NCBI GenBank assembly: GCA_040390065.1
Contig: JAZJZE010000009.1
Location: forward strand, 128,001-192,000
DNA: 64,000 nt
Direction: 5' to 3'
Source of the DNA: a bacterium
GTDB lineage: Archaea; Thermoplasmatota; E2; JACPAO01; JAHFTW01
Part shown: positions 8,524 through 60,949 of the stretch, piece by piece
Numbering within the stretch: position 1 is the first letter of the stretch
Layout: every line of letters starts with the position of its first letter
Translations under genes and position numbers: made by a program
The notes under the pieces: generated by a model
What the model was told of the DNA's origin: nothing
Databases searched by the model: none
Seen by the model: the letters and a program-made list of their open reading frames with translations, nothing else

Positions 8524-8632
8524 TCAGTATGTCCTGGCAAACCGCAGCGTGTCCTTTGCCTGCTTGGCGCAGACGGCGCACGCGGCTGGCGCGAAGGCCT
8601 CGTCGACGGGGACGCCGAGCGTCTTGATGTCC
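8524..8632 (-). pseudogene. Duplicated 3' end of proS (last 35 codons plus stop)
   Basis: 109 bp with 9 mismatches to 9167-9275; encodes DIKTLGVPVDEAFAPAACAVCAKQAKDTLRFARTY*. Confidence 0.95.
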
Positions 8633-8634
8633 CG

Positions 8635-8763
8635 CGACCTGCAAACAGGTCGATCATTTGCGTCGTGCTGCCTCGCTGCGCTCGGCACCACATAGCGTCG
8701 GGGGGCTGCCGCCCCCCGCCCGTGTCCCCCCGCCGGGGGGCCTGCCGGCCCCCGCGACCCCCA
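8635..8763 (-). mobile_element. Structured dispersed repeat, copy E1
   Basis: Terminal hairpin CGACCTGCAAACAGGTCG at 8635-8652 plus G/C-run hairpins, similar to 60806-60932. Confidence 0.85.
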
Positions 8764-8777
8764 GCAGCCGCTGGATC

Positions 8778-9167
8778 CTACGCCCAAGTCGCTGCGGGGC
8801 GGGGCAACAAGCGCATCACGGATTCGTCATCGCTTCGGGGAAAACGCGTTTCAGCGATGTCAAGGGCGGTCGGCTCGTCGTGCGGTGTCTCGTACGCGAA
8901 ATCCGACCAGACGACTTCGTCCCCAACCTGCGCCACGAGGGCCGCAAGGGCACCGCATCCTTCGTGGCCGCACAAGCCACACGTCGTAATCGTGGTTCGG
9001 CCCGACTTGAATGTAGGGCGTTCGAGAGGGACCCGGAACCAGACAAGGAGCTCGCCGTCGCGGAGCGGTCGCCCGTCAATGACGAAACGCCAAGCCGTCC
9101 GGTCCGGTCGCTCCACGCTGTCGGCCGTTGGGAACGTGTCGGTGTTCGGGACGAGCGCCAGCTGCAT
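8778..9167 (-). CDS. 129-aa cargo protein with CxxCGxxGC motif
   Basis: MQLALVPNT...CGLCGHEGCG...VVWSDF; ATG overlaps the proS TAA (TAATG). Confidence 0.7.
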   Translation of the reverse strand: MQLALVPNTDTFPTADSVERPDRTAWRFVIDGRPLRDGELLVWFRVPLERPTFKSGRTTITTCGLCGHEGCGALAALVAQVGDEVVWSDFAYETPHDEPTALDIAETRFPRSDDESVMRLLPRPAATWA

Positions 9168-10621
9168 TAGTAGGTCCTTGCAAACCGCAGTGTGTCCTTT
9201 GCCGGCTTGCTGCAGACGGCACACGCGGCTGGCGCGAAGGTCTCGTCGACGGGGACGCCGAGCGTCTTGATGTCCAGCGTCTTCTCGACGTTGGCCGCGC
9301 ATTCCGTTCCGCAGATGGGCATGGTGAGGATGTAGCCGACGTTGGCCTTCTGCCCCTCGTCATCGAGGCGCTTGGCCTCGTCGAGGGACTTGGGATGCTT
9401 GATGCGCGTCGCAACGAAGGCGGCTTGTTTGTCGAGGAGCGTTTTCTGGATGCTGGCCAGGACGTCCTTGACGCCTTGCTCCAGGTGGTCCATCGGAATG
9501 GCCTTCTTGCCCTCGCGGCCCATGTCGCGGCGGGCGCTGAAGACGGATTTCTTCTCGACGTCCTTGGGGCCGACTTCGAGGCGCAACGGGACGCCGCGCA
9601 GTTCCCAGTGGTAGTACTTCTCGCCGGCCGCCTTGGCGCGTTCGTCCAGTTCGACGCGGAAGCCCGCGAGGTCCAGCCGGTCGCGCACCGTCTTGCACGC
9701 CGCGAGGACGGCTTCCTCGCTGCCCTTGAAAACCACGGGGACGATGACGACTTGGATGGGCGCGATGTCCGGCGGCATCACCAGGCCGTTGTCGTCGCCG
9801 TGACACCCGACGACGGCACCGACGAGGCGTTCGCTCATGCCGTACGTCGTCTGGTGGCAGAGCTTGTGGCCCTCCGTCTCGGACTCGTACTTCATGTCGT
9901 ACGCCTTGGCAAAGTTCGTGCCGTAGTAGTGCACGGTGGCGCATTGCAGCGTGCGGCCGCTTGGCATGACGACGTCGGCGCCCGTGGAGTCGACGGCGCC
10001 GGGGAACTTGTCCCAGTCCGGCCGCTTCGAGTACAGCGCGGGGAGGGCGAGTTTGGCGTAGACGTGGCGCACGATGTCGAGGTCGAGCGCGACGTGCTCG
10101 CGGGCCGTCTTCTCGTCGGCGAAGACCGAGTGGTCCTCGAAGAAGTGGATCTCCCGAACGCGCATGAAGGCACGCGTCTGCTTCGTCTCGTACCGGAAGA
10201 CGTTGCAGATCTGGTACGTCGTCAGCGGCAGGTCGGAGTGGCTGCGGATCCACAGCGGGAAGATCTCGTACATGGCGCACTCCGACGTGGGGCGCACGAT
10301 CCAGCGCTCGCCTTCCGGCAGTTCGTTGTCGCCGGCATGCGTGACCCAGAAGACCTCGGAGCCGAAGCCCTTGATCTGGTCGGCCTCCTTCATGAAGAGC
10401 TTCTCGGGGATCATGAGGGGGAAGGAGACCTCGTCGTGGTGCGTGCGGCGCATCTCGGCGCGCGTGTAGTCGTCGATGGCCGACATGATGCGTTGGCCGT
10501 AAGGCCGCCAAATGTTCATGCCCTTGATGGGGTACCGCTTGTCCGTGAGTTCGGCGACCTCGACGACCTCATTGTACCACTCCATGAAGTCCTTCGACTT
10601 GGGGACCTGGGTCGCGGGCAT
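9167..10621 (-). CDS. proS: Proline--tRNA ligase (archaeal/eukaryote type)
   Basis: RPTSE, FRYETKQTRAFMRVREI, HQTTYGMSERL, WELRGVPLRLEVG, C-terminal FARTY; TTTTAT box about 25 nt upstream. Confidence 0.97.
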   Translation of the reverse strand: MPATQVPKSKDFMEWYNEVVEVAELTDKRYPIKGMNIWRPYGQRIMSAIDDYTRAEMRRTHHDEVSFPLMIPEKLFMKEADQIKGFGSEVFWVTHAGDNELPEGERWIVRPTSECAMYEIFPLWIRSHSDLPLTTYQICNVFRYETKQTRAFMRVREIHFFEDHSVFADEKTAREHVALDLDIVRHVYAKLALPALYSKRPDWDKFPGAVDSTGADVVMPSGRTLQCATVHYYGTNFAKAYDMKYESETEGHKLCHQTTYGMSERLVGAVVGCHGDDNGLVMPPDIAPIQVVIVPVVFKGSEEAVLAACKTVRDRLDLAGFRVELDERAKAAGEKYYHWELRGVPLRLEVGPKDVEKKSVFSARRDMGREGKKAIPMDHLEQGVKDVLASIQKTLLDKQAAFVATRIKHPKSLDEAKRLDDEGQKANVGYILTMPICGTECAANVEKTLDIKTLGVPVDETFAPAACAVCSKPAKDTLRFARTY

Positions 10622-10721
10622 GTTGACCCTGCGACTATGGAGATGGATAAAAGCGGGGCGGCGCGGCACGCGCAGCAAAGGTCACGGCAACGGAGCTTGA
10701 CAAGGGTATGGTGCCGGCGCT

Positions 10722-10848
10722 CTAGAGGGGCCCCTTCAATTCTCGGGGCCCACTGGCCTGCCTGGCAACCGAGTGGGGGGCGACCCCCCGAAGGGTTGTG
10801 GCTCCGTTGGCCGTGGCCAACCCTACTGTTGGGGGCCTCCCCTTGACA
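10722..10848 (-). ncRNA. Candidate structured ncRNA of about 125 nt
   Basis: Nested complementary stems in the intergenic region; strand uncertain. Confidence 0.45.
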
Positions 10849-10914
10849 TAGATTTCCCTTGGGCATGCCGCCGACCTTATGGCCTGTGCGCCGTATCGTC
10901 GACTGGTCGATTGC

Positions 10915-11847
10915 ATGGCCAAGCGCATCTCCCGCAAGACCCCGAAGGCATCGAAGAGCCCGCGCCGCAAGGCGACCCGGAAGGCCCCGTCGAAACCCAA
11001 GACGCCCCTGCGCCGGAAGGCCAAGCCAGTGAAGGCGGCAAAGGCACGCCGGGCCAAGCCCAAGGCGAAACCGGCGCCGGGAGCCTCCGCCGCGCGCGCG
11101 CCCGCAAAGCCTGCAAGGGCAACCAAGGCGGCGGGCGTTGACGTCGTGTTCAAGGAGCGAGCCGCCCCCGTGGCTTTCTCGGGTCGGGCAGCCGCCGAGG
11201 CGCGGCCCCTCAAGATCGTTCTCTTCGGCGCCTCCGGCAACATCGGCAGCCGCATCACGAGCGAGGCCGTCCGCCGCGGCCACCACGTCACGGCCGTGAT
11301 GCGCAACCCGGACCGCATGGAGTTCCGGCACGCCAACGTGCGCACGCTGCGCGCCGACGTCACGGACCCCATCCTGGTGGCGACCGTCGCCCGCGGCCAT
11401 GACGCCATCATCTCGGCCATCGCGCCGGCCGACGACGACCACGACATGCTCGCCGAGGCCGCGAGCTCCATCCTGCAGGCCGCCCGCGAAACAGGCATCA
11501 AGCGCATCGTCATCGCCAACGGAGCCGGCAGCCTCCTCGTCGGCAAAGGGAAGATGCTCATGGACACGCCGCAGTTCCCGGCCGAGTGGCGCTGGATCGC
11601 CAAGTCGCACAAGGATGCGCTCGACGTGCTGCGCGCCAAGGGCTCGGACCTCGACTGGACTGCCGTCAGTCCCGCCGCCATGATCGCCCCCGGCAAGCGC
11701 ACCGGCAAGTACCGCCTCGGCGGCGACCAACTCATGGCCGACGCAAAGGGAGACAGCCGCATCAGCATGGAAGACTTCGCGGCGGCGCTCATGGACGAGT
11801 TGGAGCAGGAACGCTACGTCGGGAAGCGGATGAGCGTGGCGTACTAG
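10915..11847 (+). CDS. NAD(P)H-binding (BVR-B-like) oxidoreductase with a basic K/R/A/P-rich N-terminal tail
   Basis: LFGASGNIGS, GAGSL, DWTAVSP and ISMEDFA motifs. Confidence 0.9.
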   Translation: MAKRISRKTPKASKSPRRKATRKAPSKPKTPLRRKAKPVKAAKARRAKPKAKPAPGASAARAPAKPARATKAAGVDVVFKERAAPVAFSGRAAAEARPLKIVLFGASGNIGSRITSEAVRRGHHVTAVMRNPDRMEFRHANVRTLRADVTDPILVATVARGHDAIISAIAPADDDHDMLAEAASSILQAARETGIKRIVIANGAGSLLVGKGKMLMDTPQFPAEWRWIAKSHKDALDVLRAKGSDLDWTAVSPAAMIAPGKRTGKYRLGGDQLMADAKGDSRISMEDFAAALMDELEQERYVGKRMSVAY

Positions 11848-11898
11848 TGCGGACACCCACCCTCCACCCTTTTGGCCCCCACCCGCGTGCGCCCAAGC

Positions 11899-13341
11899 AT
11901 GCCTGAAGTCCAGCCGATGCTCCTCGGCGGCGAATGGAAGACCAAGAGCGACGTCGAGGCCGTGCACGACCCGGCCACGGGCGCCGTGCTTGCCAGCGTC
12001 CCGCGCGGCACGAAAGAGGACGTCGACCACGCCGTCTCTGCAAGCCGCGCCGCCTTCGAAAGCAAGGACTGGAAGGGCATGGACCCGGCGCAACGCGGCC
12101 GCATCTTGCAGAAGCTCGCGGCCCTCACGTACGCCAACGCAAAGGAACTCGCCCTCATCGAGTCGCAGAACAATGGCAAGACGATCAAGGAGGCCACGGG
12201 CGACGTACGCTTTGCCGCCTGGACGCTGGAGTACTTTGCCGGTTGGGCCGACAAGGTCGAGGGCCGCACCATCCCCGTCCCCGGCGACCGGCTCGACTAC
12301 ACGCTGCAGCAACCGCTGGGCGTGACGGCGCACATCGTGCCGTGGAACTTCCCGCTGCAACTCGCCGTGCGCTCCATCGCGCCGGCACTCGCAGCCGGCT
12401 GCACGGTCGTCGCGAAGCCCGCCACGCTGACGCCGCTGTCTCTCCTGCGCTGGGCGAAGCTGGCGGAGGAGGCTGGGCTGCCAAAGGGTGTGCTGCAAGT
12501 CATCACTGGCCCCGGCGGCGAAGTCGGCGGCCGGCTGGCGTCGCATCCCGACGTCGACGGCGTCACCCTGACCGGCTCCGTCGCGACCGGCGTCCAAGTC
12601 ATGAAGGCCGCGGCGGAGAACGTCACCCCAGTGACGCTCGAACTAGGCGGCAAGGGGGCCCACATTGTCTTGCCTGACGCCGACTTGAAGAAGGCCGCCA
12701 AGGGCATCTGCTTTGGCATCTTCATGAACGCCGGGCAGATGTGCTGGGCAGGTTCGCGCCTTCTAGCACACGAATCCATCCACGATGCACTCGTCGAAGC
12801 CGTGAAGGCGGAAGCCGCGACGTGGAGGCTCGGCGTCGGCACCGAGGACGGCGTGCGCATCGGCAGCATGGTCAGCCAAGGCCAACGCAAGTCCGTCCTC
12901 GCCATGGTGCAGAAGGGCACCGACCAAGGCGCGACGCTCGTGATGGGCGGCAAGGCCCCGACGGACCCCAAGCTCGCAGGCGGCGCATTCGTCGAACCCA
13001 CGATCCTCACAAACGTCGAGGCAAAGAACGCCACGTGGAAGGAGGAAGTCTTCGGGCCCGTCCTCAGCGTCATGCCGTTTGCCACCGCCGACGACGCCGT
13101 CAAGCTCGCCAACGGCGTCGACTACGGACTCCTCAACGGCCTGTGGACGAAGGACCTCTCCTCGGCGCATCGCATCGCCCGCGACTTGCAATGCGGCATG
13201 GTCAGCGTCAACGAATACCCCGTGACGTTCCCGCAGACCCCGTTTACCGGTTGGAAGAAGTCCGGCATCGGCGCCGAGCAGGGCCGCGACGCGATGAACT
13301 TCTACACGCGCACGAAGAACGTCAACGTGAACTTGGGGTAG
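11899..13341 (+). CDS. Aldehyde dehydrogenase
   Basis: VPWNFP, LTGS, LELGGK, NAGQMC and EEVFGPV motifs. Confidence 0.96.
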   Translation: MPEVQPMLLGGEWKTKSDVEAVHDPATGAVLASVPRGTKEDVDHAVSASRAAFESKDWKGMDPAQRGRILQKLAALTYANAKELALIESQNNGKTIKEATGDVRFAAWTLEYFAGWADKVEGRTIPVPGDRLDYTLQQPLGVTAHIVPWNFPLQLAVRSIAPALAAGCTVVAKPATLTPLSLLRWAKLAEEAGLPKGVLQVITGPGGEVGGRLASHPDVDGVTLTGSVATGVQVMKAAAENVTPVTLELGGKGAHIVLPDADLKKAAKGICFGIFMNAGQMCWAGSRLLAHESIHDALVEAVKAEAATWRLGVGTEDGVRIGSMVSQGQRKSVLAMVQKGTDQGATLVMGGKAPTDPKLAGGAFVEPTILTNVEAKNATWKEEVFGPVLSVMPFATADDAVKLANGVDYGLLNGLWTKDLSSAHRIARDLQCGMVSVNEYPVTFPQTPFTGWKKSGIGAEQGRDAMNFYTRTKNVNVNLG

Positions 13342-13372
13342 TGCACAAACGCGGATCGCGGGCGCGGCTTGA

Positions 13373-14422
13373 CTATCGGCGACGCGCCGCAAGGACCACG
13401 AGAAGCACGGCGACGAGGGCCCAGGGTGCAGCCGCCGACGAATGCGCCTGGGCTGCGGCGGGCTCGTTGTGGGGTTCCGCGTGGATGTGGATACGGCCCT
13501 TGAAGTGCTGGGCCAGGACGCGGACGTGCCATTCCCCCGGCGCACCCGACAGGCGCTGCGGCTTGTGCTGCGACATGGAATCGATTTGGGCTACGACGTC
13601 GGTGCCGTTGCCGTCCGTCATTGTGACGGCGATCGCTCCCCCGGTGCGGTCGACGTCCAATGTCAAGTCGAGGTCGGGCGTCGCTACACTCCAGTTGTAG
13701 TCGTACTGCGCCGTTCGGGGGGCCCCGAAGTACGTGTCGATGTCCAGAACCTGGTCCCGCACTTCGGTGAAGGGGCGGGAAGGGTCCAGTTGGAGCGGAC
13801 AGCCTCGCACGCGCGTGCAGCCGAGAACCACGTACTCGGGCTGGAAGTCGGTGCCCAGGATGCACCCGTGCGGGTTCGGGTCCGGTGCGCAGTCCTGCAG
13901 GACGAGCGGGTTGGCGGGCGCATTGGAGTACGAGTACCCCTTGATGCTCGTCAACCCCTTGCCGACGGCGAGCTCGTACAACTCGTAGGGGACCCAGCAG
14001 TACGCCGCATTCCCCTCCGGCCTGCAGGGTATGGGCGCCAATGCGGATTCGCCGTGGGAGTCGAAGCGCAGTTGCCGGCTGGTCCAGACGTCGCTCTCAC
14101 CCGCTTGGGTGAGCAACTGCAGCCATACTTCGCCGCCGGTGCCGACGGGGTCCGTGAAATCGGCCACCTGGATGCGCACGAGAAGGGTCCCATTCCCTGG
14201 CTCGGCGATGGCCAGCTCCCGCATGTCGGCGAAGCCCAAGGCATCCGCGGGGTCGGTCCAGACCGGCTGGAACTCAAGGTCATCGAACGGCGCCGCGGCA
14301 GCGGTTTGGCCAAGGGACGCCGCGCACCACATCAGGATGACCGCCTGCTTGACGCGCACGTTATGGTTCGCACTCCCACGTGCATGAAATAGTTGCCCCA
14401 CCCACCTAGCGAGCCTTTTCAC
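13373..14422 (-). CDS. Secreted protein with C-terminal TM plus RRR tail
   Basis: Signal-like N-terminus (true start probably about 14352); C-terminus PWALVAVLLVVLAARRR. Confidence 0.7.
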   Translation of the reverse strand: MKRLARWVGQLFHARGSANHNVRVKQAVILMWCAASLGQTAAAAPFDDLEFQPVWTDPADALGFADMRELAIAEPGNGTLLVRIQVADFTDPVGTGGEVWLQLLTQAGESDVWTSRQLRFDSHGESALAPIPCRPEGNAAYCWVPYELYELAVGKGLTSIKGYSYSNAPANPLVLQDCAPDPNPHGCILGTDFQPEYVVLGCTRVRGCPLQLDPSRPFTEVRDQVLDIDTYFGAPRTAQYDYNWSVATPDLDLTLDVDRTGGAIAVTMTDGNGTDVVAQIDSMSQHKPQRLSGAPGEWHVRVLAQHFKGRIHIHAEPHNEPAAAQAHSSAAAPWALVAVLLVVLAARRR

Positions 14423-14444
14423 GGCGCTCCCCTTCGGCCCAGCG

Positions 14445-15236
14445 ATGACGTCCGCTTACGTCACAGTCCAGCGCGAACCCGGCGCCGTCGCCGTGGTCAC
14501 CTTCAGCCGCGCCGAGTCGATGAACTCCTTCGACCCGAAGGTCATCGGCGAACTGCACCGTCTGTTCCGCTCGCTCCTCGACGACGTGACGGTGCGCGGC
14601 ATCGTCCTCACGGGGACGGGAAAAGCGTTCTGCGCCGGCGCCGATGTGCGGGAATTCGAGAAGGGGGTCCAATCCGGCACCGCCGTCCAATGGGTGCTCG
14701 ACGCAACGGCCGCGCTCCACCCGCTCCTGCTCGAGATCCAGGAATCGCCCAAGGTCTTCGTGGCGGCGCTCAACGGAGTTGCCGCCGGCGGCGGGTTGGG
14801 GCTGGCGCTCGTGGCCGACGCGCGTATCGCAAATCCACAGGCCCGCCTGGCGGCGTCGTATTTCCGTCTCGGCCTCAGCCCCGATGGCGGCGCGACGTGG
14901 CTCATGCCGCGACTCGTCGGGTTCCAGCGGGCGCGCCAGTTCTTCTTCAACAACGAAGTCATGGACGCCGAGGAGGCCTTCGTCTGCGGCGCCGTCGACG
15001 AACTGGTCCCGGCGGACAAGCTGCTGCCGCGCGCCATCGAATTGGCCCGCACGTGGGGCGCGTGGGCGGCCCACAGCCGCGGTGCAACCAAACGCCTCTT
15101 GGCTGCCTCCGAGAACCACGACTTCGGCACGCAGTTGGACCTCGAGCGCGGCCTCATCGCCGCCGCGGCCGGGACGAAAGACTTCGCGGAAGGCGTCACT
15201 GCGTTCCGGGGAAAACGCGAGCCGAAGTTCGCCTGA
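14445..15236 (+). CDS. Enoyl-CoA hydratase/isomerase (PaaG-like)
   Basis: AFCAGAD, NGVAAGGG, GLSPDGGATW and EGVTAFRGKREPKF motifs. Confidence 0.93.
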   Translation: MTSAYVTVQREPGAVAVVTFSRAESMNSFDPKVIGELHRLFRSLLDDVTVRGIVLTGTGKAFCAGADVREFEKGVQSGTAVQWVLDATAALHPLLLEIQESPKVFVAALNGVAAGGGLGLALVADARIANPQARLAASYFRLGLSPDGGATWLMPRLVGFQRARQFFFNNEVMDAEEAFVCGAVDELVPADKLLPRAIELARTWGAWAAHSRGATKRLLAASENHDFGTQLDLERGLIAAAAGTKDFAEGVTAFRGKREPKFA

Positions 15237-15240
15237 CCGG

Positions 15241-15515
15241 ACCACCTGCGTATCGACGTTGCCCGCAAGAGCCTCCCCCGCCCCCACCATCAACCGAAGC
15301 AACAGAAGCAACCGAGTTGCAAGGCCGCTCGTCAGGCGCCCCTCGGTGGTGGGCACTCGTCCGTGCGAGCGCAAGGCGCGAGCGTAGCGGGGGCGAGGGA
15401 CGCGCAAGCGCCCCCGCGGGGGGACATGGGCGGGGGGCCGAGCCCCCCGCCGCTATGTGGCGCCGCAGAACAGCGGCGGCGCCACGACGCAACTGATCGA
15501 CCTGTTTGCAGGTCG
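15241..15515 (+). mobile_element. Structured dispersed repeat, copy E2
   Basis: Ends GATCGACCTGTTTGCAGGTCG (hairpin 15498-15515); flanked by GACCGG at 15235 and 15515; left boundary inferred. Confidence 0.75.
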
Positions 15516-15554
15516 ACCGGCATTGCCATGAACCGCGTTCGAATCCCGCAAGCC

Positions 15555-16358
15555 ATGGCAAATGTCGACCTCGCGTTCAAAGAGGACGGCCCCGGCGCCG
15601 GCCCCGCCGTCGTCCTGGTGCACGGCTTCCCTTTCGACGGCCGCATGTGGCTCCCGACGGCCAAGGTCCTGGGCGCAGCCGGCTACCACGTCATCGTCCC
15701 CGACTTGCGTGGCCACGGCAAGTCGCCCGTCGGCGAAGGAGCCGCGACGATGGAGGCCATGGCGGACGACGTTGCCGGCCTGCTCGACAAGCTCGCAATC
15801 CGCCGCTGCGTCCTCGTCGGCTTCTCGATGGGCGGATACGCCGCGCTGCAGGTCGCGCACCGGCACCGCGAACGCCTGTCGGCCCTCGGCCTCGTCGACA
15901 CGCGCGCCGAGGCGGACTCCGAGGAGGCCAAGGCGGGCCGGCGCACGACGGCCGCCGCCATCCGCGAGAAGGGCATGCAGCACCTCGTCGACACGATGCT
16001 TCCCAAGGTGACCGGTCCCGCGACGAAGGCGAAGAAGCCGGAGGTCGTCGAATTCCTCACCCGCATGGTCCTCGAGAATTCGACGGACGGCGCCGTGGCG
16101 GCGCTCGCAGGCATGGGGAAGCGTCCGGACATGCGTGGCAAGCTTTCCGGCATGGGGCTTCCCGTCTTCGTGGCGGTGGGCGAGGACGACGTCATCACAC
16201 CCCCCGACGCGGGCTCGCGCATGGCCCACGCCTTCGCCATGAGCAGCTACGAATTGATTCCCGGCGCCGGTCATGTGTCACCGCTGGAGCAACCCGAGAA
16301 GTTCCACAAGGTTCTCCTGGAGTGGCTCGGGGCCGTCTCGCCGGTACGCCGCAGCTAG
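15555..16358 (+). CDS. Alpha/beta hydrolase (enol-lactonase-like)
   Basis: HGFP, PDLRGHG, GFSMGG, GEDD and AGHVSPLEQP motifs. Confidence 0.92.
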   Translation: MANVDLAFKEDGPGAGPAVVLVHGFPFDGRMWLPTAKVLGAAGYHVIVPDLRGHGKSPVGEGAATMEAMADDVAGLLDKLAIRRCVLVGFSMGGYAALQVAHRHRERLSALGLVDTRAEADSEEAKAGRRTTAAAIREKGMQHLVDTMLPKVTGPATKAKKPEVVEFLTRMVLENSTDGAVAALAGMGKRPDMRGKLSGMGLPVFVAVGEDDVITPPDAGSRMAHAFAMSSYELIPGAGHVSPLEQPEKFHKVLLEWLGAVSPVRRS

Positions 16359-16370
16359 GCGCCCACAGGT

Positions 16371-16434
16371 CAACCGACGCAACCGAGGCAACCGACCCAG
16401 TCACCAGATTCGGTTGCGTCAGTTGCTTCGGCTG
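16371..16434. repeat. 9-bp-periodic palindrome (CAACCGANG units)
   Basis: Three tandem units followed by reverse-complement units, between convergent genes; partial copy at 15291-15320. Confidence 0.8.
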
Positions 16435-16449
16435 AGGGAACGCCGAAGC

Positions 16450-17358
16450 CTAGGGGCCAATCAACGTCGCCGCATTGTCATGCAAGATCATGCGATTCGC
16501 CTTCTCCGACAGTCCGAGAGCGAGGAACGATTCGACGTTCTTGCCCATTCCCGGGACTCCGGGTCCTGGCCAGTCGCTTCCCCAGAGGGTCCGCGGCGCC
16601 AACGCCTCGAGGTCGCCAAAGTAGTCTGGCAGCTTCTTCGGTGGGCAACTCGACACGTCGAGCCAGGCGTTCGGGAACTCTGCCAGAATGGCAAGGGCCT
16701 CCTGCGTCTCGTCCGGTCGCCCGCCGTGCGCAATGACCACCTTGAGTTTGGGGAAGGTCTGGCACACCTTGCGCAGGCGCGACGGTGAGCCGAACTTGTT
16801 TGACGCGCCCGGGAACTTGCTCGTGCCGGTATGGAAGATGACGGGCATGCCGCGTCGTTCACATTCCCGCAGCGCCGGCCGCAGGCGCCGCCCGTCGGGT
16901 CGCAAATGTTGGTGGACGGCGTGGATCTTCAGTGCCCGGATGCCCAGGTCCGCCAGCTTGCCGACGGCCTCCTCGCCGTCGCCGTCGTGCCGCGGGTCGT
17001 AGCCGCCAACGGCGACCAGGCGCGTGGGGTCGGCCTCGACGTACCCGCCGATCCAGTCGTTGACTTCCCACCCGTAGCCCATCACTTCCTTGGCGCAGTA
17101 ATTGACGAGCCACGCCTGCCGGATGCCCTCGCGGTCCATGTGTTCCAGGAACGCGGTTGCATCGGCCTGGAATTCCTGCATGAGGTGAAACGTGGGGTTC
17201 TGGCGGATGAGGGCCTGCGCCGCCGGCGTCATGAGGTCGAAGCGGTTGACGTGCACGTGGCCGTCGACGACCGGGATGCCTGCATGAGGCCACTTGCCCG
17301 CCGGGACGGTCTTGGCCTTGGTGGGCGTCGATTTGGGCTTGGGCGCACGCGTTGCCAT
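16450..17358 (-). CDS. Amidohydrolase_2 family protein
   Basis: DGHVH, LKIH, FHTG, AHGG and WGSDWP motifs. Confidence 0.92.
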   Translation of the reverse strand: MATRAPKPKSTPTKAKTVPAGKWPHAGIPVVDGHVHVNRFDLMTPAAQALIRQNPTFHLMQEFQADATAFLEHMDREGIRQAWLVNYCAKEVMGYGWEVNDWIGGYVEADPTRLVAVGGYDPRHDGDGEEAVGKLADLGIRALKIHAVHQHLRPDGRRLRPALRECERRGMPVIFHTGTSKFPGASNKFGSPSRLRKVCQTFPKLKVVIAHGGRPDETQEALAILAEFPNAWLDVSSCPPKKLPDYFGDLEALAPRTLWGSDWPGPGVPGMGKNVESFLALGLSEKANRMILHDNAATLIGP

Positions 17359-17384
17359 GCTGTCGAAGGTGAGGCGTCCAACCT

Positions 17385-18161
17385 TCATGTGCGTGGCGGA
17401 CGCGGCACTGCGGCCTTGGAAAGGAAGGCCTGCACCCGCCGCTTCGACTCTTCGCGTGCGTGCAACGACACGAATTCGTCCACCTCCATGGCAAGGCCGC
17501 GCTGGTAATCAACCGTCACGGCGGCGTGAAGGGCGCGCTTCGCGGCCGCCACGGCGACCGGGTCTTGGGCCGCCATGCGCGAAGCCATGGCCACGGCCGA
17601 AGGCAGGACCGTTTCAGGGGAAAGCACGATGTCGACCAAGCCAAGGATTTGCGCTTCGGCCCCGTCGACAGCGTGCCCCGTGAACACGAGACGACCGGCG
17701 TGGCTTCGACCGATGAGGCGTACCAGTCGCTGCGTTCCCCCGCCTCCTGGAATCAAGCCGAAGGAGATTTCCGGCTGACCCAGCCGGGCCGCGGCACTGC
17801 AGGCCCGCCAATCGCAAGCCGTCGCGAGTTCGAGGCCGGCTCCGAGGGCATCCCCGTTGATGGCCGCGATGACGGGCTTGCGCAGCCCTTCGATGACTGA
17901 GTAGATGTGCGGCGGCTGCAGGAAGGCGGCTTGCTGCTCGCTGGTGCGCGCCGCAAGTTCCCCGAGGTCGGCGCCAGCGGCGAAGGCAGAGCCTGCCCCC
18001 GTGATGACGATGGCGCCGACGCTCGCGTCGTTTTCCGCTTCGTGCAGGTTTGCAATGAGTTCGAGGCGCAAGGCGGCGCTGAGGGCGTTGCGCTGCTCGG
18101 GACGGTTGAGGGTGAGGATCCGGACGCGCCCTTCGTCCTTCGACAAGACCAAACCACTCAT
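17385..18161 (-). CDS. Enoyl-CoA hydratase (PaaF-like)
   Basis: LNRPEQRNAL, AFAAGAD, GAGLELA and QPEISFGLIPGGGGTQRL motifs. Confidence 0.93.
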   Translation of the reverse strand: MSGLVLSKDEGRVRILTLNRPEQRNALSAALRLELIANLHEAENDASVGAIVITGAGSAFAAGADLGELAARTSEQQAAFLQPPHIYSVIEGLRKPVIAAINGDALGAGLELATACDWRACSAAARLGQPEISFGLIPGGGGTQRLVRLIGRSHAGRLVFTGHAVDGAEAQILGLVDIVLSPETVLPSAVAMASRMAAQDPVAVAAAKRALHAAVTVDYQRGLAMEVDEFVSLHAREESKRRVQAFLSKAAVPRPPRT

Positions 18162-19042
18162 GACAATCGTCGCTCCATGGGTTTTCCCGTCGACCAGTCG
18201 TAGATTCCTTTGCCGGACTTCTTGCCGACCTCGCCGCGCTCCACGAGGCGACGCGCGAAGGCGGGGCTGTCGAACTGCGATCCGCCGAGTTCGCGCTTGA
18301 GATAGTCGCTGATGGCAAGGCGGACGTCGAGTCCCACGAGGTCGGACAATTCGAGCGGGCCCATCGGGTGGCCGTAGCCGAGACGCATCGCCGTGTCGAT
18401 GTCGCTGGCCGAGGCGACGCCGGATTCGAGCATGCGCATGGCCTCGTTGCCAAGCACGATGCCCAGGCGGCTCGTGGCAAAACCGGGAACGTCCTTGGCG
18501 ACGATCGTGGTCTTGCCGAGCCGGTCGCCGACCGCGCGGGCCGCGGCGACGGTGGCGTCGGAGGCGGCGTCGTGGCGGACAATCTCGAGGAGTTTCATGA
18601 GCGGCACCGGATTGAAGAAGTGCATGCCGACGACGGCCTGCGGCCGCTTCGTGGCGGCGGCGATCTGGGCGATGCTGAGACTTGACGTGTTCGTGGCGAG
18701 GACCGCGTGCGGGGGCGCCCATCGGTCCGCGTCCCGGAAGACGTCCTGTTTGAGGGCCATGTTCTCGGGGACGGCTTCGATCACGAGGTCGCTCTTGGCA
18801 AGCGCGTCGCGCAGCGGGGTCTTGGCGTCGAGGTTCGCGGTCCACGCATCCCGCTGCGCCGTCGTGGTCTTGCCCTTGGCGATGCCCGCGGCCCAGAACT
18901 CCTCGATGCGCGCGACGCCCCTGGCCAGCCCGGCCGGGATGGCGTCGTGCAGGTAGGTGTAGTACCCGGCTTGGGCGCACACTTGCGCGATGCCCGCGCC
19001 CATCGTGCCGGCGCCGACGATGGTGACGGTCTTGACGTCCAT
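18158..19042 (-). CDS. 3-hydroxyacyl-CoA dehydrogenase
   Basis: GAGTMGAGIA, EAVPE, TNTSSL, MHFFNP and HPMGPL motifs. Confidence 0.95.
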   Translation of the reverse strand: MDVKTVTIVGAGTMGAGIAQVCAQAGYYTYLHDAIPAGLARGVARIEEFWAAGIAKGKTTTAQRDAWTANLDAKTPLRDALAKSDLVIEAVPENMALKQDVFRDADRWAPPHAVLATNTSSLSIAQIAAATKRPQAVVGMHFFNPVPLMKLLEIVRHDAASDATVAAARAVGDRLGKTTIVAKDVPGFATSRLGIVLGNEAMRMLESGVASASDIDTAMRLGYGHPMGPLELSDLVGLDVRLAISDYLKRELGGSQFDSPAFARRLVERGEVGKKSGKGIYDWSTGKPMERRLS

Positions 19043-19080
19043 CGGGGGCCGCGAGGGCGCAACCCGGTGAAAGGCTTGCC

Positions 19081-19695: not shown

Positions 19696-19731
19696 GGGCG
19701 GGCGCCAAGCCTGGCCCCCTATGAGCGTTGT

Positions 19732-19767
19732 GTCAGGCCTTGCGGAAATCCGGTTTGCGGCGCGCGA
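19732..19767 (-). repeat. Perfect 36-bp duplicate of the 3' end of the crotonase gene at 20568-21350
   Basis: Identical to 20567-20602, including the stop codon. Confidence 0.95.
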
Positions 19768-56548: not shown

Positions 56549-57337
56549 ATGCACCCCCTTCGAGCCTTGGCCCCTCTCCTGGCCATCCTCCTCGCCCCAG
56601 CGGCCTCCGCCGCATTCGTCTCCGAGGTCGCCGGCGGCGACACCGACAACGGCATCGCACTCGTCCTCCAGCACGCCGCCTTCACCTTCATCGACGGCAA
56701 CGCCAATGGCCACTTGGACTCGGCCGCGCCCCGCGAACCCATCTACTTGGACCTGGACGCGTCGGGGACCGTCACGTACGGCGACGAACGGCTGACGCCC
56801 TTTGGCCACTACGCAGGCCACACGCAGGTGGACCTGACGGACGCGGACGCAGGCCGTGCGCTTGCGGCGGCGCCGGGCTGGTTCGCGCGCAGCAATGCCG
56901 GCTGGGTCGCGGACCTCGACAATTCCGGGACCCTCACGGCGGGCGACCTGCGCCTCGGCGCCGATGGCGCCACACCAATTGCCACAGCGCAGGCCACGGG
57001 CGAAATTCTGCGCGTGCAGGGCACGCCGGGAACGCTCTTCCACATGGGGCAAGGCGCGTCGCTCTACCTGGACACCGACTCTTGGACCGCGGGCGGCGGC
57101 CAGGTCAGCCCCGGGGACGTGCGCATCATTGCGGGCCCGTTTGCGACTGAACCCGTGGCGCCGCAGCCACCGGCCTCGCCCGTCCCGGCGCAGGATAGCA
57201 CGCCCGCAGCAACGGCGCATCAAGCGGCCGATTCGTGGCGCTCCCTCGACTGGGTCCTCGTCGGCCTCGCCGTCGCGAACCTGGCGGGGCTTGCCATGCT
57301 AGCCAAGGCGCAACGGCCCAAGAACCCGTTCAAGTGA
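56549..57337 (+). CDS. Membrane-anchored secreted protein with Dx[DN]xxG Ca-binding-like repeats
   Basis: Signal peptide; DGNANG, DLDASGTVTYGD, DLDNSGTLTAGD; C-terminal TM. Confidence 0.78.
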   Translation: MHPLRALAPLLAILLAPAASAAFVSEVAGGDTDNGIALVLQHAAFTFIDGNANGHLDSAAPREPIYLDLDASGTVTYGDERLTPFGHYAGHTQVDLTDADAGRALAAAPGWFARSNAGWVADLDNSGTLTAGDLRLGADGATPIATAQATGEILRVQGTPGTLFHMGQGASLYLDTDSWTAGGGQVSPGDVRIIAGPFATEPVAPQPPASPVPAQDSTPAATAHQAADSWRSLDWVLVGLAVANLAGLAMLAKAQRPKNPFK

Positions 57338-57339
57338 AA

Positions 57340-57389
57340 TGGGGAAGATGGGAGTTGAACCCACGACCTGGGCATGATGAGTGCCCCGC
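57340..57389 (-). pseudogene. Duplicated 3' 50 nt of tRNA(CAT)
   Basis: 49/50 identity to 57543-57592. Confidence 0.95.
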
Positions 57390-57509
57390 GAATCTGCAAA
57401 CAGGTCGATCATTTCCGTCGTGCGGCGCTCGCTTCGCTCGACCGCGACCTGCAAACAGGTCGATCATTTCCGTCGTGCGGCGCTCGCTCCGCTCGGCCGC
57501 ACATAGGCG
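57390..57509 (-). mobile_element. Structured dispersed repeat E3, two tandem 55-bp end units
   Basis: CTGCAAACAGGTCGATCATTTCCGTCGTGCGGCGCTCGC at 57394 and 57449. Confidence 0.88.
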
Positions 57510-57542
57510 CTCGACACTTCCGTCGTCGACCAGGGAATGCAG

Positions 57543-57616
57543 TGGGGAAGATGGGAGTTGAACCCACGACCTGGGCATTATGAGTGCCCCGCCCTAACCA
57601 GCTAGGCCACTTCCCC
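57543..57616 (-). tRNA. tRNA with CAT anticodon (Ile2 or elongator Met)
   Basis: Cloverleaf GGGGAAG/CTTCCCC-A; anticodon arm GGGCA-CTCATAA-TGCCC; T loop TTCAACT; no encoded CCA. Confidence 0.93.
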
Positions 57617-58325: not shown

Positions 58326-59533
58326 CGCGGCGCCTCCAAGACGTGGACGACCGCGGTTGCGCCGGTGCCGCCGACGTTGTGCGTGAGCGCAATGCGCGCG
58401 TCCTTCACTTGGCGGGCCTCCGCCTTGCCGCGCAATTGCCATGTCGCTTCGCAGACCTGGGCGATTCCGGTAGCACCGGCGGGGTGGCCGCGGGCCTTGA
58501 GGCCGCCCGACGGGTTGACGACGGGCAGGTCGCCGCCGAAGGTCGTGCGGCCGTCCTGGACCGCAGCGCCACCGTCGCCCTTGCGCACGAAGCCCAAGTC
58601 CTCGATGGCCAAGATCTCGGCGATGGTGTAGCCGTCGGAGACTTCGGCGAGTTGGATGTCGCCAGCGGAGACGCCGGCTTCGGTGTACGCGCGACGAGCG
58701 GCCTGTTCGGTGGCCCGCATGGCGGTGATGGTGGGACGGGAATGCAGGGCAAGGGAATCACTGGCTTGCCCCGAGCCCGCGACGAGGATTGGGTCCTTGC
58801 GGTACGAACTTGCGACGGCGCCGCTTGCGAGGACGACGCAGGCCGCCCCGTCGGAGATGGGGGCGCAGTCGAACATCGTGAGGGGCTCGGCGACGAACGG
58901 CGCCTTCAGCACAGTGGCGAGGTCGATGGGCTTGCGGAATTGCGCCAGCGGATTCTTCGAGCCGTGCAGGTGGTTCTTGACGGCGACTTGGGCGATCTGC
59001 TCGCGCGTCGTGCCGAATTCGTGCATGTGGCGTTTGGCCATGAGGGCATGCAGGGCCGCGTCGGTCGCGCCGAAGAAGTGCTCCCATTCCTGGTCGATGC
59101 CTGCGGATGCGATGGCCTGCGCGTCCGCGTCGGACACGTCGGTCATCTTCTCGATGCCGCCCACGACGACGATGTCGGCCGAGCCGCTGCGGATGAGCTG
59201 GACGGCCTGGCGGAAGGCGACCGCGCCCGAGGCTCCCGCAGCTTCCACGCGAGTGGCGGGGATATGCTGGTCGGCAAGACCGGCCCCGTCCAACAGCAAT
59301 GGAGCCACGTGTTCCTGGCCGACGAGTTTGCCAGTGCTCATGGTGCCGACGAAAACGGCGTCGATGGCGTCGCCTTGGACGCCCGCGTCCTGGATGGCGG
59401 CGAGGCCGGCTTCCGTCATGAGGTCACGGTAGGATTTTTCCCACTGTTCGCCGAACCGCGTCTGGCCGGCACCGATGACGAAGGCGTCCGGGCGTTCTTG
59501 CTTGCGTTTGGCGGGCGGCGTGCGGGGGCTCAT
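58322..59533 (-). CDS. Archaeal acetoacetyl-CoA thiolase homolog with altered catalytic motifs
   Basis: GIEKMTD, NPLAQF, PISDGAA, NPSGGLKARGHP and HNVGG motifs; operon context. Confidence 0.92.
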   Translation of the reverse strand: MSPRTPPAKRKQERPDAFVIGAGQTRFGEQWEKSYRDLMTEAGLAAIQDAGVQGDAIDAVFVGTMSTGKLVGQEHVAPLLLDGAGLADQHIPATRVEAAGASGAVAFRQAVQLIRSGSADIVVVGGIEKMTDVSDADAQAIASAGIDQEWEHFFGATDAALHALMAKRHMHEFGTTREQIAQVAVKNHLHGSKNPLAQFRKPIDLATVLKAPFVAEPLTMFDCAPISDGAACVVLASGAVASSYRKDPILVAGSGQASDSLALHSRPTITAMRATEQAARRAYTEAGVSAGDIQLAEVSDGYTIAEILAIEDLGFVRKGDGGAAVQDGRTTFGGDLPVVNPSGGLKARGHPAGATGIAQVCEATWQLRGKAEARQVKDARIALTHNVGGTGATAVVHVLEAPR

Positions 59534-60588
59534 TCCGTCGACCCCATGACGAGCTTGCCGCGGAACTTGGCGTAGGTGGCGTAGTCGATGCGCGTCGTCG
59601 ATGCGAGCCTGGCCTCGAGGCTGTCCTCTTCGGTGCGCGAGTAGGCGTCGATGTTGCGGGTGACGGTCATGCTGAAGGCGTCAGAGCCGGCGCCCGAGCC
59701 GTAGCCGCAGACGAAGATCGTGTCGCCGGCGGCGGCTTGGTCGAGGATATTGCACAGCCCCAGCAGGACCGCGGCGGAGTACGTGTTGCCGATGCGTGGC
59801 GCGAGCAGGCCCGCTTCCGTTTGCTCCGGCGTGAAGCCCAACTTCTGGGCGGCCGCGGTCGGGAACTTCCCGTTGGGCTGGTGGAAGACGGCGTGCGTGT
59901 AGTCCTTCGCGAGCGTGTCCGTATCTGCAAACAGGCGTTCGGCGCACATGCGGACGTGCCGGAAGTACGCGGGCTCGCCGGTGAACCGTTCGCCGTGGCT
60001 GGGATACTTCTGTCCCTCGCGGCGCCAGAAATCCGGCGTGTCGGACGTGAAGGAGACGGTGTGCTCGATGTCGGCAAGGATGTGTTTCTTGTCGCCGCCC
60101 AGGAGCATCGCGGCGGCCCCCGCAGAGGCAGAATACTCGAGTGCGTTGCGTGGAGCCCCTTGACTCGTGTCGGCCCCGATTGCGAGCACGGTCTTGCACA
60201 TCCCGGAGGCGACGAGGCCCATGCCGGACTGGATTGCGGCCGTGCCGGCCTTGCAGGCGAACTCGTAGTCGGCCATCGTCATGTACGGGTTCGCGTCGAG
60301 CGCGGCCTGCACGATGGTCCCGGTGGGCTTGACGGCGTACGGATGCGATTCGCTTCCCACGTAGAGGGCACCGATGTCGGCCGGCGTCGTCGGGGCGCGG
60401 CGCATGGCTTGCCGGGCGGCTTCGACGCTCATCGTGGCGACGTCCTCGTCGATCGCTGGCACCGACTTCTCGAGGACGTTCAGGGACTTGCCGACGTTGG
60501 CGTCGTCGCCCCAGACGCGGGCGATCTCCTCCGCCTGGATGCGGTAGCGCGGCACGTACGCGCCGTAACTGGTGATGCCCACGGGCAT
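59530..60588 (-). CDS. Archaeal hydroxymethylglutaryl-CoA synthase
   Basis: GSESHPYAVKP, EFACKAGT, FHQPNGKFP, IGNTYS and GSGAGSD motifs. Confidence 0.96.
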   Translation of the reverse strand: MPVGITSYGAYVPRYRIQAEEIARVWGDDANVGKSLNVLEKSVPAIDEDVATMSVEAARQAMRRAPTTPADIGALYVGSESHPYAVKPTGTIVQAALDANPYMTMADYEFACKAGTAAIQSGMGLVASGMCKTVLAIGADTSQGAPRNALEYSASAGAAAMLLGGDKKHILADIEHTVSFTSDTPDFWRREGQKYPSHGERFTGEPAYFRHVRMCAERLFADTDTLAKDYTHAVFHQPNGKFPTAAAQKLGFTPEQTEAGLLAPRIGNTYSAAVLLGLCNILDQAAAGDTIFVCGYGSGAGSDAFSMTVTRNIDAYSRTEEDSLEARLASTTRIDYATYAKFRGKLVMGSTE

Positions 60589-60659
60589 GGCGAACGTTCG
60601 ACCAGGAGGGCCGTCATAAGCGTGCCGAGGGAACTGTCGGCATTTGACGAGGGCGCGAG

Positions 60660-60932
60660 AAAGCCTGCTTCCCCCAGGCCAACGGGCGATTCCTCCTTTG
60701 CTCCGACGGCGGCGGAACACAGATTGCGACGAATCCGTCATGACACGCGCGTAGGCCCCCGGCCGGGGCGAGCTGGTATTGCAAGCGCCTCGGCGCGAGC
60801 ATGCCAGGGGTCGCGGGGGCCGGCAGGCCCCCCGGCGGGGGGAAACGGGCGGGGGGCGGCAGCCCTCCGCCGCGATGTCGCGAGGCGAAGCCGAGGCAGG
60901 ACATCGCAAATGATCGACCTGTTTTCAGGTCG
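60660..60932 (+). mobile_element. Structured dispersed repeat, full-length copy E4
   Basis: Ends AAATGATCGACCTGTTTTCAGGTCG; flanked by GCGCGAG at 60653 and 60932; left half homologous to 63647-63753. Confidence 0.82.
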
Positions 60933-60949
60933 CGCGAGGGCCACCGCGG

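Follow-up and report, generated by a model that had tools for sequence, protein, structure and literature searches.

A hairpin-ended repeat associated with duplicated gene ends in an uncultured archaeal genome

How can an insert come to lie directly behind a gene, followed by a second copy of that gene's 3' end, and leave the gene itself intact? The question is posed by a 64,000-nt stretch (hereafter the window) of contig C9, which belongs to a metagenome bin of 50 contigs and 89% completeness (G000) that we compared with related genomes, G003 and G012 among them. An earlier note on this DNA described four such loci and attributed them to a dispersed, hairpin-ended element that would add single cargo genes behind host genes in the manner of an integron. 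Here we find that across the genome this repeat, termed E, shows a strong association with duplications, variable in length, of the gene end next to it, the host gene remaining intact as had been claimed, and that the layout looks like the scar of an enzyme-less miniature integrating element and not like a new integron-like system.

The arrangement of intact gene, insert and copied gene end is solid at proS, at a crotonase gene and at a tRNA-Met gene, and weak at a desaturase gene. The features that make up the four loci are as follows, in window coordinates.

9163-9279, minus strand: 3' end of proS (DR-L, the upstream copy) with stop TAA; the intact gene spans 9167-10678
8778-9170, minus strand: 130-aa ORF between proS and E (the "cargo"), with a GC3 of 0.75, below that of neighbouring genes
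8637-8766, minus strand: E copy at proS, made up of G/C-rich hairpins, the H2 hairpin, a linker and the terminal hairpin
8520-8636, minus strand: displaced proS 3' end (DR-R) with stop TGA, ten differences from DR-L
20567-20602, minus strand: crotonase (ECH_1) 3' end and stop, upstream copy; the gene spans 20568-21440
19782-20531, minus strand: 249-aa protein (DUF3108-like) with a signal peptide, in the insert behind the crotonase gene
19732-19767, minus strand: second copy of the crotonase 3' end, identical in 36/36 nt to 20567-20602
31109-31131, minus strand: fatty-acid desaturase (FA_desaturase) 3' end and stop; the gene spans 31109-32335
30488-30510, minus strand: possible, weak desaturase 3'-end remnant behind a 160-aa ORF (30584-31066)
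57542-57616, minus strand: intact tRNA-Met(CAT), the last 50 nt of which are the upstream copy of the duplication
57390-57537, minus strand: two partial E copies in tandem (period 55 nt), inserted behind tRNA-Met
57335-57389, minus strand: displaced tRNA-Met 3' part (positions ~25-74) with one anticodon-loop difference

The proS gene carries the Pfam domains tRNA-synt_2b, HGTP_anticodon and ProRS-C_1, and its duplication aligns over 107 nt at 92.5% identity (8526-8632 repeating 9169-9275) or, in another alignment, over 117 nt at 91%; the ORF behind it has a single homologue in a protein search. At this locus the 3' end of E falls at ~8637, directly against the proS remnant. The tRNA-Met duplication matches in 49/50 nt (57340-57389 against 57543-57592), and the proximal partial E copy there ends in ...CAGATTC. 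At both loci E abuts the duplicate exactly, in agreement with the earlier note. The desaturase repeat matches in 21/23 nt with a BLAST E of 3.3, which is not significant alone; in both of its copies the last codon is a stop, read in the same frame. Neither the crotonase insert nor the desaturase insert contains E.

E is a non-coding repeat of 70-165 nt. Its 5' part is variable and is followed by a variable hairpin (H2) and a conserved linker, and the conserved hairpin at its terminus gives it a precise 3' end. The dispersed element with one precise end is found more widely than had been claimed. Approximately 31 copies are scattered over 11 contigs of G000, all of them intergenic and many belonging to mosaics with other hairpin repeats; E was detected in 7 of 40 related genomes, in most of which only 1-4 copies occur. 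Pairing of the terminal stem holds in 39/39 copies, with covariation at its inner pair (33 G-C, 4 U-A), while the H2 hairpin varies in sequence and keeps its pairing, the H2 segment exceeding 47 of 50 shuffles in stability in 34/40 copies. Terminal inverted repeats were not found in the E inserts, the left ends of which have no sequence in common and are not mirror images of the right end. Near-identical subfamilies at different G000 loci imply spread within the genome, and E-linked tandem arrays exist. In the window, the repeat motif occurs 6 times against 0 expected, one occurrence (42239-42255) having flanks unlike E. Two window copies and an associated second repeat, R2, complete the inventory.

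15393-15515, plus strand: E copy between two genes, no abutting duplication
60675-60935, plus strand: E copy (~60796-60935) with a 5' extension, no abutting duplication; part of a ~445-nt composite that recurs at two further places in G000
60936-61200, plus strand: R2, a second dispersed repeat with a long hairpin, which comes after E at this locus and also at several further copies of E

The copies of E also bear on the loose GCG target preference that the earlier note had read from the junctions. The letters that it quoted are correct; however, the G following GGTC is part of E's own hairpin and occurs in 31/31 copies, and several of the junctions in ...GCG are copies of one composite of E and R2. 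With the G of "GCG" being the last base of E itself, the preference is not supported.

The genome-wide enrichment anticipated by the earlier note is, on the other hand, evident. Requiring a direct repeat, 18 nt or longer, that starts no more than 12 nt from the 3' end of E and has its partner no more than 900 nt upstream, we found one at 14 of 31 testable G000 copies, as opposed to 16 of 5000 random positions. The duplications abutting E represent at least 12 independent events in G000, with the same events in sister species, and the same terminal module of E abuts at least nine unrelated gene ends. The flanking repeats span 19-117 nt and are made of gene ends: the 3' 50 nt of tRNA-Met, the 3' 19 nt of tRNA-Asp and the 5' 50 nt of tRNA-Ser(CGA), or the C-terminal codons and stop of six protein genes, proS among them, with ORFs of 504, 519, 613, 634, 274 and 207 codons. 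In most gene-end cases the repeat stops 0-10 nt from the stop codon or tRNA end, and some tRNA-linked duplications extend 20-50 nt past the gene. The E inserts are 70-165 nt long except for that at proS (530 nt), the only one to carry an ORF. The two members of most repeat pairs are separated by 70-650 nt on a single contig and show differences at 2-14% of positions, with mismatches as near as 3-7 nt to the E junction, and there is consequently no clear identity block for strand exchange.

Related genomes show both the layout and loci that lack it. The order gene end, E, gene end was observed in related genomes for 5 of 11 copies and, in a further count, for 5 of 7, and for tRNA-Met, tRNA-Ser and tRNA-Ala the junction between E and target falls at the identical nucleotide across genomes. 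When the loci of the window were checked in relatives, as the earlier note had proposed, E was present in 0 of 10 proS flanks, 0 of 10 crotonase flanks and 1 of 12 tRNA-Met loci. The second repeat copy is likewise lacking (proS 0/10, crotonase 0/10, tRNA-Met absent in 11/12), in flanks of ~77% identity, a divergence at which the exact empty site cannot be aligned base for base.

The two copies of a gene end have diverged in the manner of coding sequence. Differences between intact and displaced copies fall on codon positions one to three as 5, 7 and 20 (third positions 20/32), and across six loci and 123 codons 20 codons differ synonymously and 9 non-synonymously. The third-position excess is clear against an expectation of one third (p = 0.0007) and marginal against 0.45 (p = 0.035), the latter being our own estimate for one constrained and one free copy. 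Stop codons or C-termini often differ between the copies, as with TAA and TGA at proS. The intact tRNA-Met of G012 matches G000 in the type of its T-arm and acceptor, whereas the remnant behind E is of the other type found in the genus and identical to the G003 tRNA; the remnants of G000 and G012 share one anticodon-loop base that is seen in 0 of 9 intact tRNAs. Judged by these patterns, the two repeat copies look like functional alleles.

No match to an integrase, transposase or reverse transcriptase was obtained on the window stretch of contig C9, as the earlier note had stated, and a serine recombinase lies elsewhere on that contig (1361-2203). A recombinase or transposase beside some copy of E, for which that note had proposed to look, was not found: none is encoded in or next to the inserts or adjoins any E copy, and the 6-7 tyrosine recombinases, five serine recombinases and two IS5-like transposases located elsewhere in G000 have no E module within 6 kb, with the exception of one chance-level hairpin match. 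The two IS5-like genes are the only DDE transposases found in G000, both weak (60 bits against a cut-off of 140), and their flanks show no similarity to each other or to E. In G000, at 89% completeness, no match was obtained for Y1 (PF01797) or TnpB (PF07282), nor was any found for reverse transcriptase (PF00078). A diversity-generating retroelement was rejected on the latter result and on the proS mismatches, which involve all four bases and both copies, whereas such a retroelement changes only adenines of the template copy.

The reading that we favour, tentatively, is that E is a small mobile element, non-coding and non-autonomous, that belongs to one family of uncultured archaea, most likely Thermoplasmatota, and enters by a pop-in through homology. 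The incoming DNA would carry its own copy of the target gene end right after the 3' end of E and would recombine with the resident gene inside this homology in a Campbell-type event; the functional gene end would then come from the insert, the resident end would be displaced behind E, and later unequal recombination between the copies could produce tandem arrays. We infer an enzyme acting in trans, as well as the way in which new targets are gained. That enzyme might be a tyrosine integrase whose activity depends on homology, like the pTN3 integrase, which recombines any homologous pair of ~100 bp according to the account cited (PMC5495485); alternatively, host recombination could act after a cut at the hairpin. 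Several observations count against the pop-in. No recombinase or transposase of G000 is tied to E, seventeen of the 31 copies have no abutting repeat, and one conserved module beside at least nine unrelated targets is a poor fit to a classical sequence-specific integrase. The mismatches close to the junction, the tRNA-linked duplications that overrun the gene and the marginal third-position excess weigh on the same side.

An insert that brings its own gene end may be read, by analogy, as an attL-element-attR structure or as an "insertion with long target duplication", and the claim that known systems do not behave in this way is not supported in view of these precedents and that of IS1634/IS1549. 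Archaeal integrated elements are described as targeting the 3'-distal parts of tRNA or protein genes and may supply a stop codon of their own, with reported att lengths of 8-69 bp (PMC6563490). As in the elements so described, the repeats at E are taken from the 3'-distal region of a protein gene or tRNA gene, or in some tRNA cases from the 5'-distal region; the gene end is restored by the element with a possibly different stop codon, and tandem arrays may form at one site. In contrast to these elements, E inserts are non-coding apart from the ORF at proS, repeats reach 107-117 nt, and a single hairpin module serves its many targets, so that the family has no one fixed target even if the junction is fixed within each; inserts of 70-530 nt carry no integrase of their own, and none is tied to E. 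Cis-mobilizable elements (CIMEs) of streptococci are likewise integrase-less and att-flanked and lack recombination genes. Insertion with long target duplication (Nobusato et al. 2000; Furuta et al. 2010) is described for bacterial DNA without a mobility gene (PMC2853133). E shares the features given there, namely variable repeats longer than 30 bp that span a start or stop codon, an intact gene, the lack of a mobility gene and amplification through the repeats. The published cases differ in concerning kilobase inserts with restriction-modification genes in bacteria, with no conserved hairpin end reported in the description cited, whereas the host of E is archaeal and most of the inserts are members of a non-coding repeat family.

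A less probable account than the pop-in is that E transposes by trans-acting staggered cuts 19-117 nt apart, yielding target-site duplications of variable length among which selection retains the insertions spanning gene ends. The precise 3' end, variable 5' end and variable repeat length of E fit this account, as do the 98-100% identity of several repeats, the near-identical subfamilies at different loci and the tRNA-linked duplications that run past the gene, an overrun that staggered cuts would predict. Duplications of 8-514 bp are on record for IS1634 and IS1549, whose family is frequent in Euryarchaeota (PMC2266710), IS1630 is described as duplicating inverted repeats of 19-26 bp, and inserts without a mobility gene are also reported (PMC2853133). 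Yet the repeats mostly stop close to the stop codon or tRNA end and not anywhere in the spacer, the differences between copies are mostly synonymous, and the tRNA-Met gene and remnant of G012 are of different types. IS1634 and IS1549 moreover possess terminal inverted repeats and a DDE transposase, whereas E has one defined end with no inverted partner, and in G000 (89% complete) no IS1634-family transposase was found, the weak IS5-like genes having flanks unlike E. A DDE transposon or MITE was also rejected, there being neither terminal inverted repeats nor a cognate transposase with matching ends.

We consider doubtful the more elaborate proposal of a self-targeting archaeal element, a homology-guided, integrase-less and gene-sparing parasite of which E would be the business end. 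A trans-acting enzyme would cut at the terminal hairpin and join it to a point inside the upstream gene, and a small circle of gene end and E would then integrate by homology at the same gene in naive chromosomes or cells. The same proposal would take in possible scars at 19 of 52 G000 tRNA genes, with E and a second hairpin family at tRNA T-loops.

It is improbable that E is immobile, a structural or regulatory hairpin of the REP/BIME kind (for instance at mRNA 3' ends) whose palindromes provoke replication or repair errors that duplicate the neighbouring sequence. REP/BIME and IS200/IS605 elements resemble E as short, extragenic, GC-rich hairpins in mosaics, with compensatory pairing and one precise end beside a hairpin, and the intergenic position, conserved pairing, tandem arrays and low copy number of E in most relatives are in keeping with such a role. 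These elements nevertheless insert without duplicating their target and rely on a Y1 HUH transposase, and an IS200/IS605 or REP/RAYT origin was rejected on the presence of duplications and the lack of any PF01797 or PF07282 match in G000. An immobile hairpin likewise sits poorly with a junction that is exact at the last base of E and lacks microhomology to whatever precedes the upstream copy, with the same loci in relatives without E, with ~31 copies in G000 against 1-4 elsewhere, with an order of gene end, E and gene end that passes into unique flank and is no simple tandem duplication, and with inserts that show the same layout without E.

The integron-like reading, according to which a dispersed system with a hairpin site and a loose preference for GCG places single cargo genes behind host genes, is very improbable. 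It draws on the ORF and E hairpin behind proS, on the two other gene ends of the window with single-gene inserts and duplicated ends, and on ~10 further inserts of 0.3-5 kb between local direct repeats in G000. The role of E as an adder of cargo genes is not supported, given the restriction of an ORF to one of ~31 copies and the crotonase and desaturase cargo without E, which suggests that cargo inserts and E are independent. Integron cassettes enter in succession at a single attI site next to an integron integrase gene, and without target duplication, whereas repeats of 19-117 nt flank E. Nor is the integron analogy supported, given the absence of an array at a single attachment site and of an integron-type site, and the G that is E's own, and an integron cassette or attC was rejected on the dispersal of E over 11 contigs and the lack of a tyrosine recombinase within 6 kb of an E module.

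That the duplications are assembly chimeras of co-occurring strains is barely credible: G000 is a fragmented metagenome bin, and in an independent contig set from what is probably the source run every repeat coincides with a break, but separately assembled relatives have the same junction nucleotide at tRNA-Met, tRNA-Ser and tRNA-Ala, most pairs differ at 2-14% within one contig, and assembly offers no explanation for the association with the exact end of E.

Gene-sparing long target duplications have been on record since 2000, and the descriptions cited offer no mechanism for them (PMC2853133; PMC2266710). E provides a compact, repeated and conserved case of the phenomenon, and its ~31 copies, exact end and at least 12 events, shared with sister species, render the question directly testable. 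Small non-coding elements and single genes can evidently settle behind essential archaeal genes, such as proS and tRNA genes, and leave them unharmed. The system further suggests that integration guided by homology, a behaviour demonstrated to date in one Thermococcus integrase, may be widespread. Should E instead prove the scar of an ordinary integrase, the loci assembled here would still be of use as a catalogue for a little-known archaeal lineage. A further instance of the layout lies behind another crotonase gene, on metagenome contig L107.

Copies of the hairpin-ended, non-coding repeat E (70-165 nt) are linked to direct repeats throughout G000, the genome that contains the window. A copy was scored as linked when a sequence starting at most 12 nt from its 3' end recurred, ungapped and over at least 18 nt, within the 900 nt upstream. 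Fourteen of the 31 testable copies showed such a repeat, against 16 of 5000 random positions. Counted by independent locus, the 14 copies come down to 11, because each of two pairs consists of tandem units at a single locus and one copy belongs to an E-E tandem at tRNA-Met; a twelfth, with 78 nt at 86% identity, was seen by BLAST only. At C6:10134 the repeat is a partial tandem copy of E, not of the target. Three of the 12 loci are tRNA genes:

tRNA-Met: 3' 50 nt duplicated, up to the discriminator base
tRNA-Asp: 3' 19 nt duplicated, from the T-loop
tRNA-Ser-CGA: 5' 50 nt duplicated, with E antisense to the tRNA

At six other loci, long ORFs with high third-position GC (504, 519, 613, 634, 274 and 207 codons) have their final 10-37 codons and stop codon duplicated, and the repeats end anywhere from 12 nt short of the stop codon's last base to 10 nt beyond it; the last three loci match no gene assignment. 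The upstream copy always completes an intact gene and the downstream copy is a fragment. Abutting repeats also occur in related genomes (5 of 11 copies in one set and 5 of 7 in another), where the duplicated segments include the 5' part of a tRNA-Ala gene and several C-terminal ends.

A 145-nt E query returned 22 matching stretches on 8 of the 50 contigs of G000 (2.68 Mb), and a pattern describing the terminal hairpin recovered 31 copies and one variant; a strict pattern finds 20 copies. All copies are intergenic according to a crude gene call based on third-position GC, and every copy ends in a conserved linker and hairpin, the outer six pairs of which are retained in all 39 aligned copies, and the inner pair covaries (33 G-C, 4 U-A). 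Upstream of the linker lies a second hairpin (H2), very different in sequence from copy to copy, a 40-nt segment of which beat 47 of 50 shuffles in stability in 34 of 40 copies. Further 5' the copies diverge into G/C-rich hairpins, other modules or nothing, and E therefore has one exact and one variable end. In Rfam, two tRNAs alone passed the threshold, and E corresponds to no RNA family described there.

In at least five copies, the 3' end of E borders directly on another dispersed repeat, R2. R2 forms a long hairpin at window positions 60936-61200 and 1501-1585 and has more than a dozen further matches in G000. A composite of about 445 nt, made up of a 5' extension, E and R2 (window 60675-61120), recurs at G000:C9:82935-83381 (91%) and C17:93328-93785 (79%). 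Two inverted pairs were considered as full-length transposons and rejected: the interior of the E pair on C17 resembles housekeeping genes by eye, and the E+R2 pair on C11 encloses ordinary ORFs. At G000:C17:83435-84937, 34-nt repeats enclose a 1.4-kb insert with an E variant on its left, the reverse of the order at proS. Two E variants without duplication, at G000:C17:83558 and at a locus on contig C2 of the related genome G005 (L017), seem by eye to meet a convergent tRNA gene end to end, 3' end against 3' end.

When one genome per prokaryote species was scanned for the exact pattern, 26 stretches came up, of which 14 derive from metagenome-assembled genomes labelled Thermoplasmatota archaeon (11) or 'uncultured Halobacteriales archaeon' (3) and the remaining 12 are single matches in unrelated bacteria. 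E is present in seven of 40 related genomes, all of the same family, with 1-4 copies each. Judged by the record titles, the host is probably an archaeon of the phylum Thermoplasmatota; no CCA is encoded in its tRNA genes. Two matches on viral contigs lie in low-GC, unrelated sequence and were discarded as chance matches. A metagenome scan yielded only two 1-kb contigs, neither containing an autonomous element; one adds another gene-end example, an E-abutting repeat behind another crotonase gene.

Within the window, the repeat motif singled out in the earlier note occurs six times against zero expected; five occurrences belong to E, and the flanks of the sixth (42239-42255) do not resemble it. 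Four gene-end duplications had been claimed. Those of proS (107 nt at 92.5%, or 117 nt at 91% in another comparison), crotonase (36 of 36 nt) and tRNA-Met (49 of 50 nt) were recovered, but the desaturase repeat (21 of 23 nt, E-value 3.3) is not significant on its own. Pfam and ARAGORN bear out the gene names, and E joins the downstream copy exactly at proS and tRNA-Met, as had been described; the crotonase and desaturase inserts do hold one ORF each, but neither contains E. A search of 5.8 billion clustered proteins gave a single homologue, 58% identical, for the ORF between proS and E (window 8778-9170), and no Pfam family scored above the cut-off for it. A hairpin of CACTGAA-like units lies beside the possible desaturase remnant (window 30400-30470), and similar units recur in the R2-linked mosaics of C11 and at the beginning of C9.

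Gene-end duplication is a property of G000 and not of E alone, E being its most recognisable passenger, because the genome also contains about 45 short local direct-repeat pairs, detected by self-comparison, a second family of inserts at tRNA genes, and some ten inserts of 0.3-5 kb with the same flanking-repeat layout. Of the 52 tRNA genes predicted, 19 are accompanied, at a distance of 70-370 nt, by an incomplete duplicate derived from their own 5' or 3' part. Many of these copies span the 19 nt from the T-loop to the 3' end and sit behind the second insert family, which ends in a GC-rich hairpin that abuts the remnant. Examples outside the window lie at:

C9:116860-117034
C9:195388-195568
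C2:30228-30402
C6:76494-76852
C1:345454-345816

These inserts have in common a GGGTTTGCC-like motif and may also carry a stretch complementary to the tRNA tail; this stretch is suggestive by eye and in one case (Phe, z = 5.5), and an ungapped cross-comparison did not discriminate.

The layout may be read either as recombination at gene ends or as a target-site duplication generated by cuts placed far apart. Under the former, a gene end carried by the incoming DNA would recombine with the resident gene, producing attL/attR sites or a pop-in. The evidence favours gene-end recombination because the repeats mostly end at a gene boundary, not anywhere in the spacer, and because coding differences between copies concentrate on third codon positions and are mostly synonymous. 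The 32 coding differences in six pairs are distributed as 5, 7 and 20 over the three codon positions, with 20 synonymous and 9 non-synonymous codons; this departs from neutral decay (p = 0.0007 versus one third) and, marginally, from decay confined to one copy (p = 0.035 versus 0.45, our own rough expectation). Intact and displaced copies often differ, moreover, in their stop codon or in one to two last residues, which also argues for a gene end brought in from elsewhere, as does the tRNA-Met locus of the related genome G012. Two types of tRNA-Met, distinguished by their acceptor and T-arm, exist in the genus; G012 combines an intact gene of one type with a remnant behind E that belongs to the other type and is identical to the gene of a further relative, G003. 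The G000 and G012 remnants have in common an anticodon-loop base that is missing from every intact gene.

Several observations run against gene-end recombination: some tRNA-linked repeats extend 20-50 nt past the gene, several repeat pairs are 98-100% identical, mismatches come as near as 3-7 nt to the junction, and near-identical E subfamilies occupy different G000 loci. The last implies that E must reach new targets, which pop-in alone does not explain. No inverted copy of the duplicated segment was detected within the inserts of the nine E loci compared (z at most 2.8 in 9 of 9). The best-supported reading is that of a non-autonomous, hairpin-ended integrating element whose insert would supply the gene end.

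An assembly artefact is an unlikely source of the duplications, since identical junctions recur in separately assembled genomes, most repeat pairs differ at 2-14% of positions, and the link to the exact end of E has no assembly explanation. No RNA run is listed among those containing the stretch; contigs of the one sequencing run that does contain it, probably the source sample, tile window 8000-21500 in eight pieces that end in or at repeats; no listed piece bridges a repeat, and the segment order is therefore neither confirmed nor refuted by them. One joint of 8627 to 9324 with 21-nt sides (run X3) is too short for an empty allele. Relatives have E-free sites with one gene-end copy at the proS 3' flank (10 of 10), the crotonase flank (10 of 10, each with a single copy) and the tRNA-Met locus (11 of 12); these are E-free rather than exact empty sites, because the flanks are unalignable at about 77% DNA identity. 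At the tRNA-Met locus of G005 (L053), a different insert of about 95 nt without E precedes a 20-nt copy of the tRNA 3' end. The spacer between crotonase and the 3-hydroxyacyl-CoA dehydrogenase gene (window 19047-20578) is a variable site, as it ranges from 36 nt to about 1.5 kb and contains different signal-peptide proteins among 11 genomes of the genus.

The observation made in the earlier note is thus confirmed and extended, but its premise that no known system behaves like this was too strong, and a new system resembling a dispersed integron is not supported. Three parallels are known. Archaeal integrated elements target tRNA genes or the 3'-distal portion of protein-coding genes, form tandem arrays and have att repeats of 8-69 bp, and for one of them the insert is described as bringing a different stop codon or last residues (PMC6563490). 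Bacterial restriction-modification genes provide the case called 'insertion with long target duplication': inserts devoid of mobility genes are flanked by long repeats of variable length, which in many instances cover a start or stop site without disrupting the gene, and the mechanism is still given as open (PMC2853133). IS1634 and IS1549 generate 8-514-bp duplications, likewise with no mechanistic model (PMC2266710). New in the present case are the archaeal host, the miniature insert size, the way in which one conserved hairpin end is combined with many different gene ends, the divergence of the two copies in the manner of coding sequence, and the density of scars. A search of open-access papers gave no description of such an element in Thermoplasmatota, and E is best regarded as representing either attL/attR-type integration or insertion with long target duplication in a new, archaeal form.

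The enzyme complement of G000 (89% complete) includes six tyrosine recombinase matches, five serine recombinases, two weak IS5-like transposases and, next to a tRNA-Val fragment of 22 nt, one integrase-like ORF; no match to a reverse transcriptase, Y1 HUH transposase, TnpB, IS110 transposase or Cas1 was found. None of these recombinases or transposases lies within the window, in agreement with the earlier reading. There are no E modules near the tyrosine recombinases, nor in the flanks of three of the five serine recombinase loci (C4, C5 near 247600, and C9). Since no E module was seen near the recombinase loci covered and none of these enzymes sits in the window, any enzyme for E would act in trans. 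A precedent for homology-dependent integration in archaea is the pTN3 integrase, reported to recombine any two homologous sequences as short as about 100 bp (PMC5495485). Three loci with recombinase genes are probably ordinary integrated elements:

C4:105117-107748: tRNA-Lys with a tyrosine and a serine recombinase behind it
C5:243800-248639: tRNA-Met with serine recombinases and a tyrosine recombinase behind it
C11:125500-126105: 22-nt tRNA-Val 3' fragment beside the integrase-like ORF, 92 kb from the tRNA-Val gene
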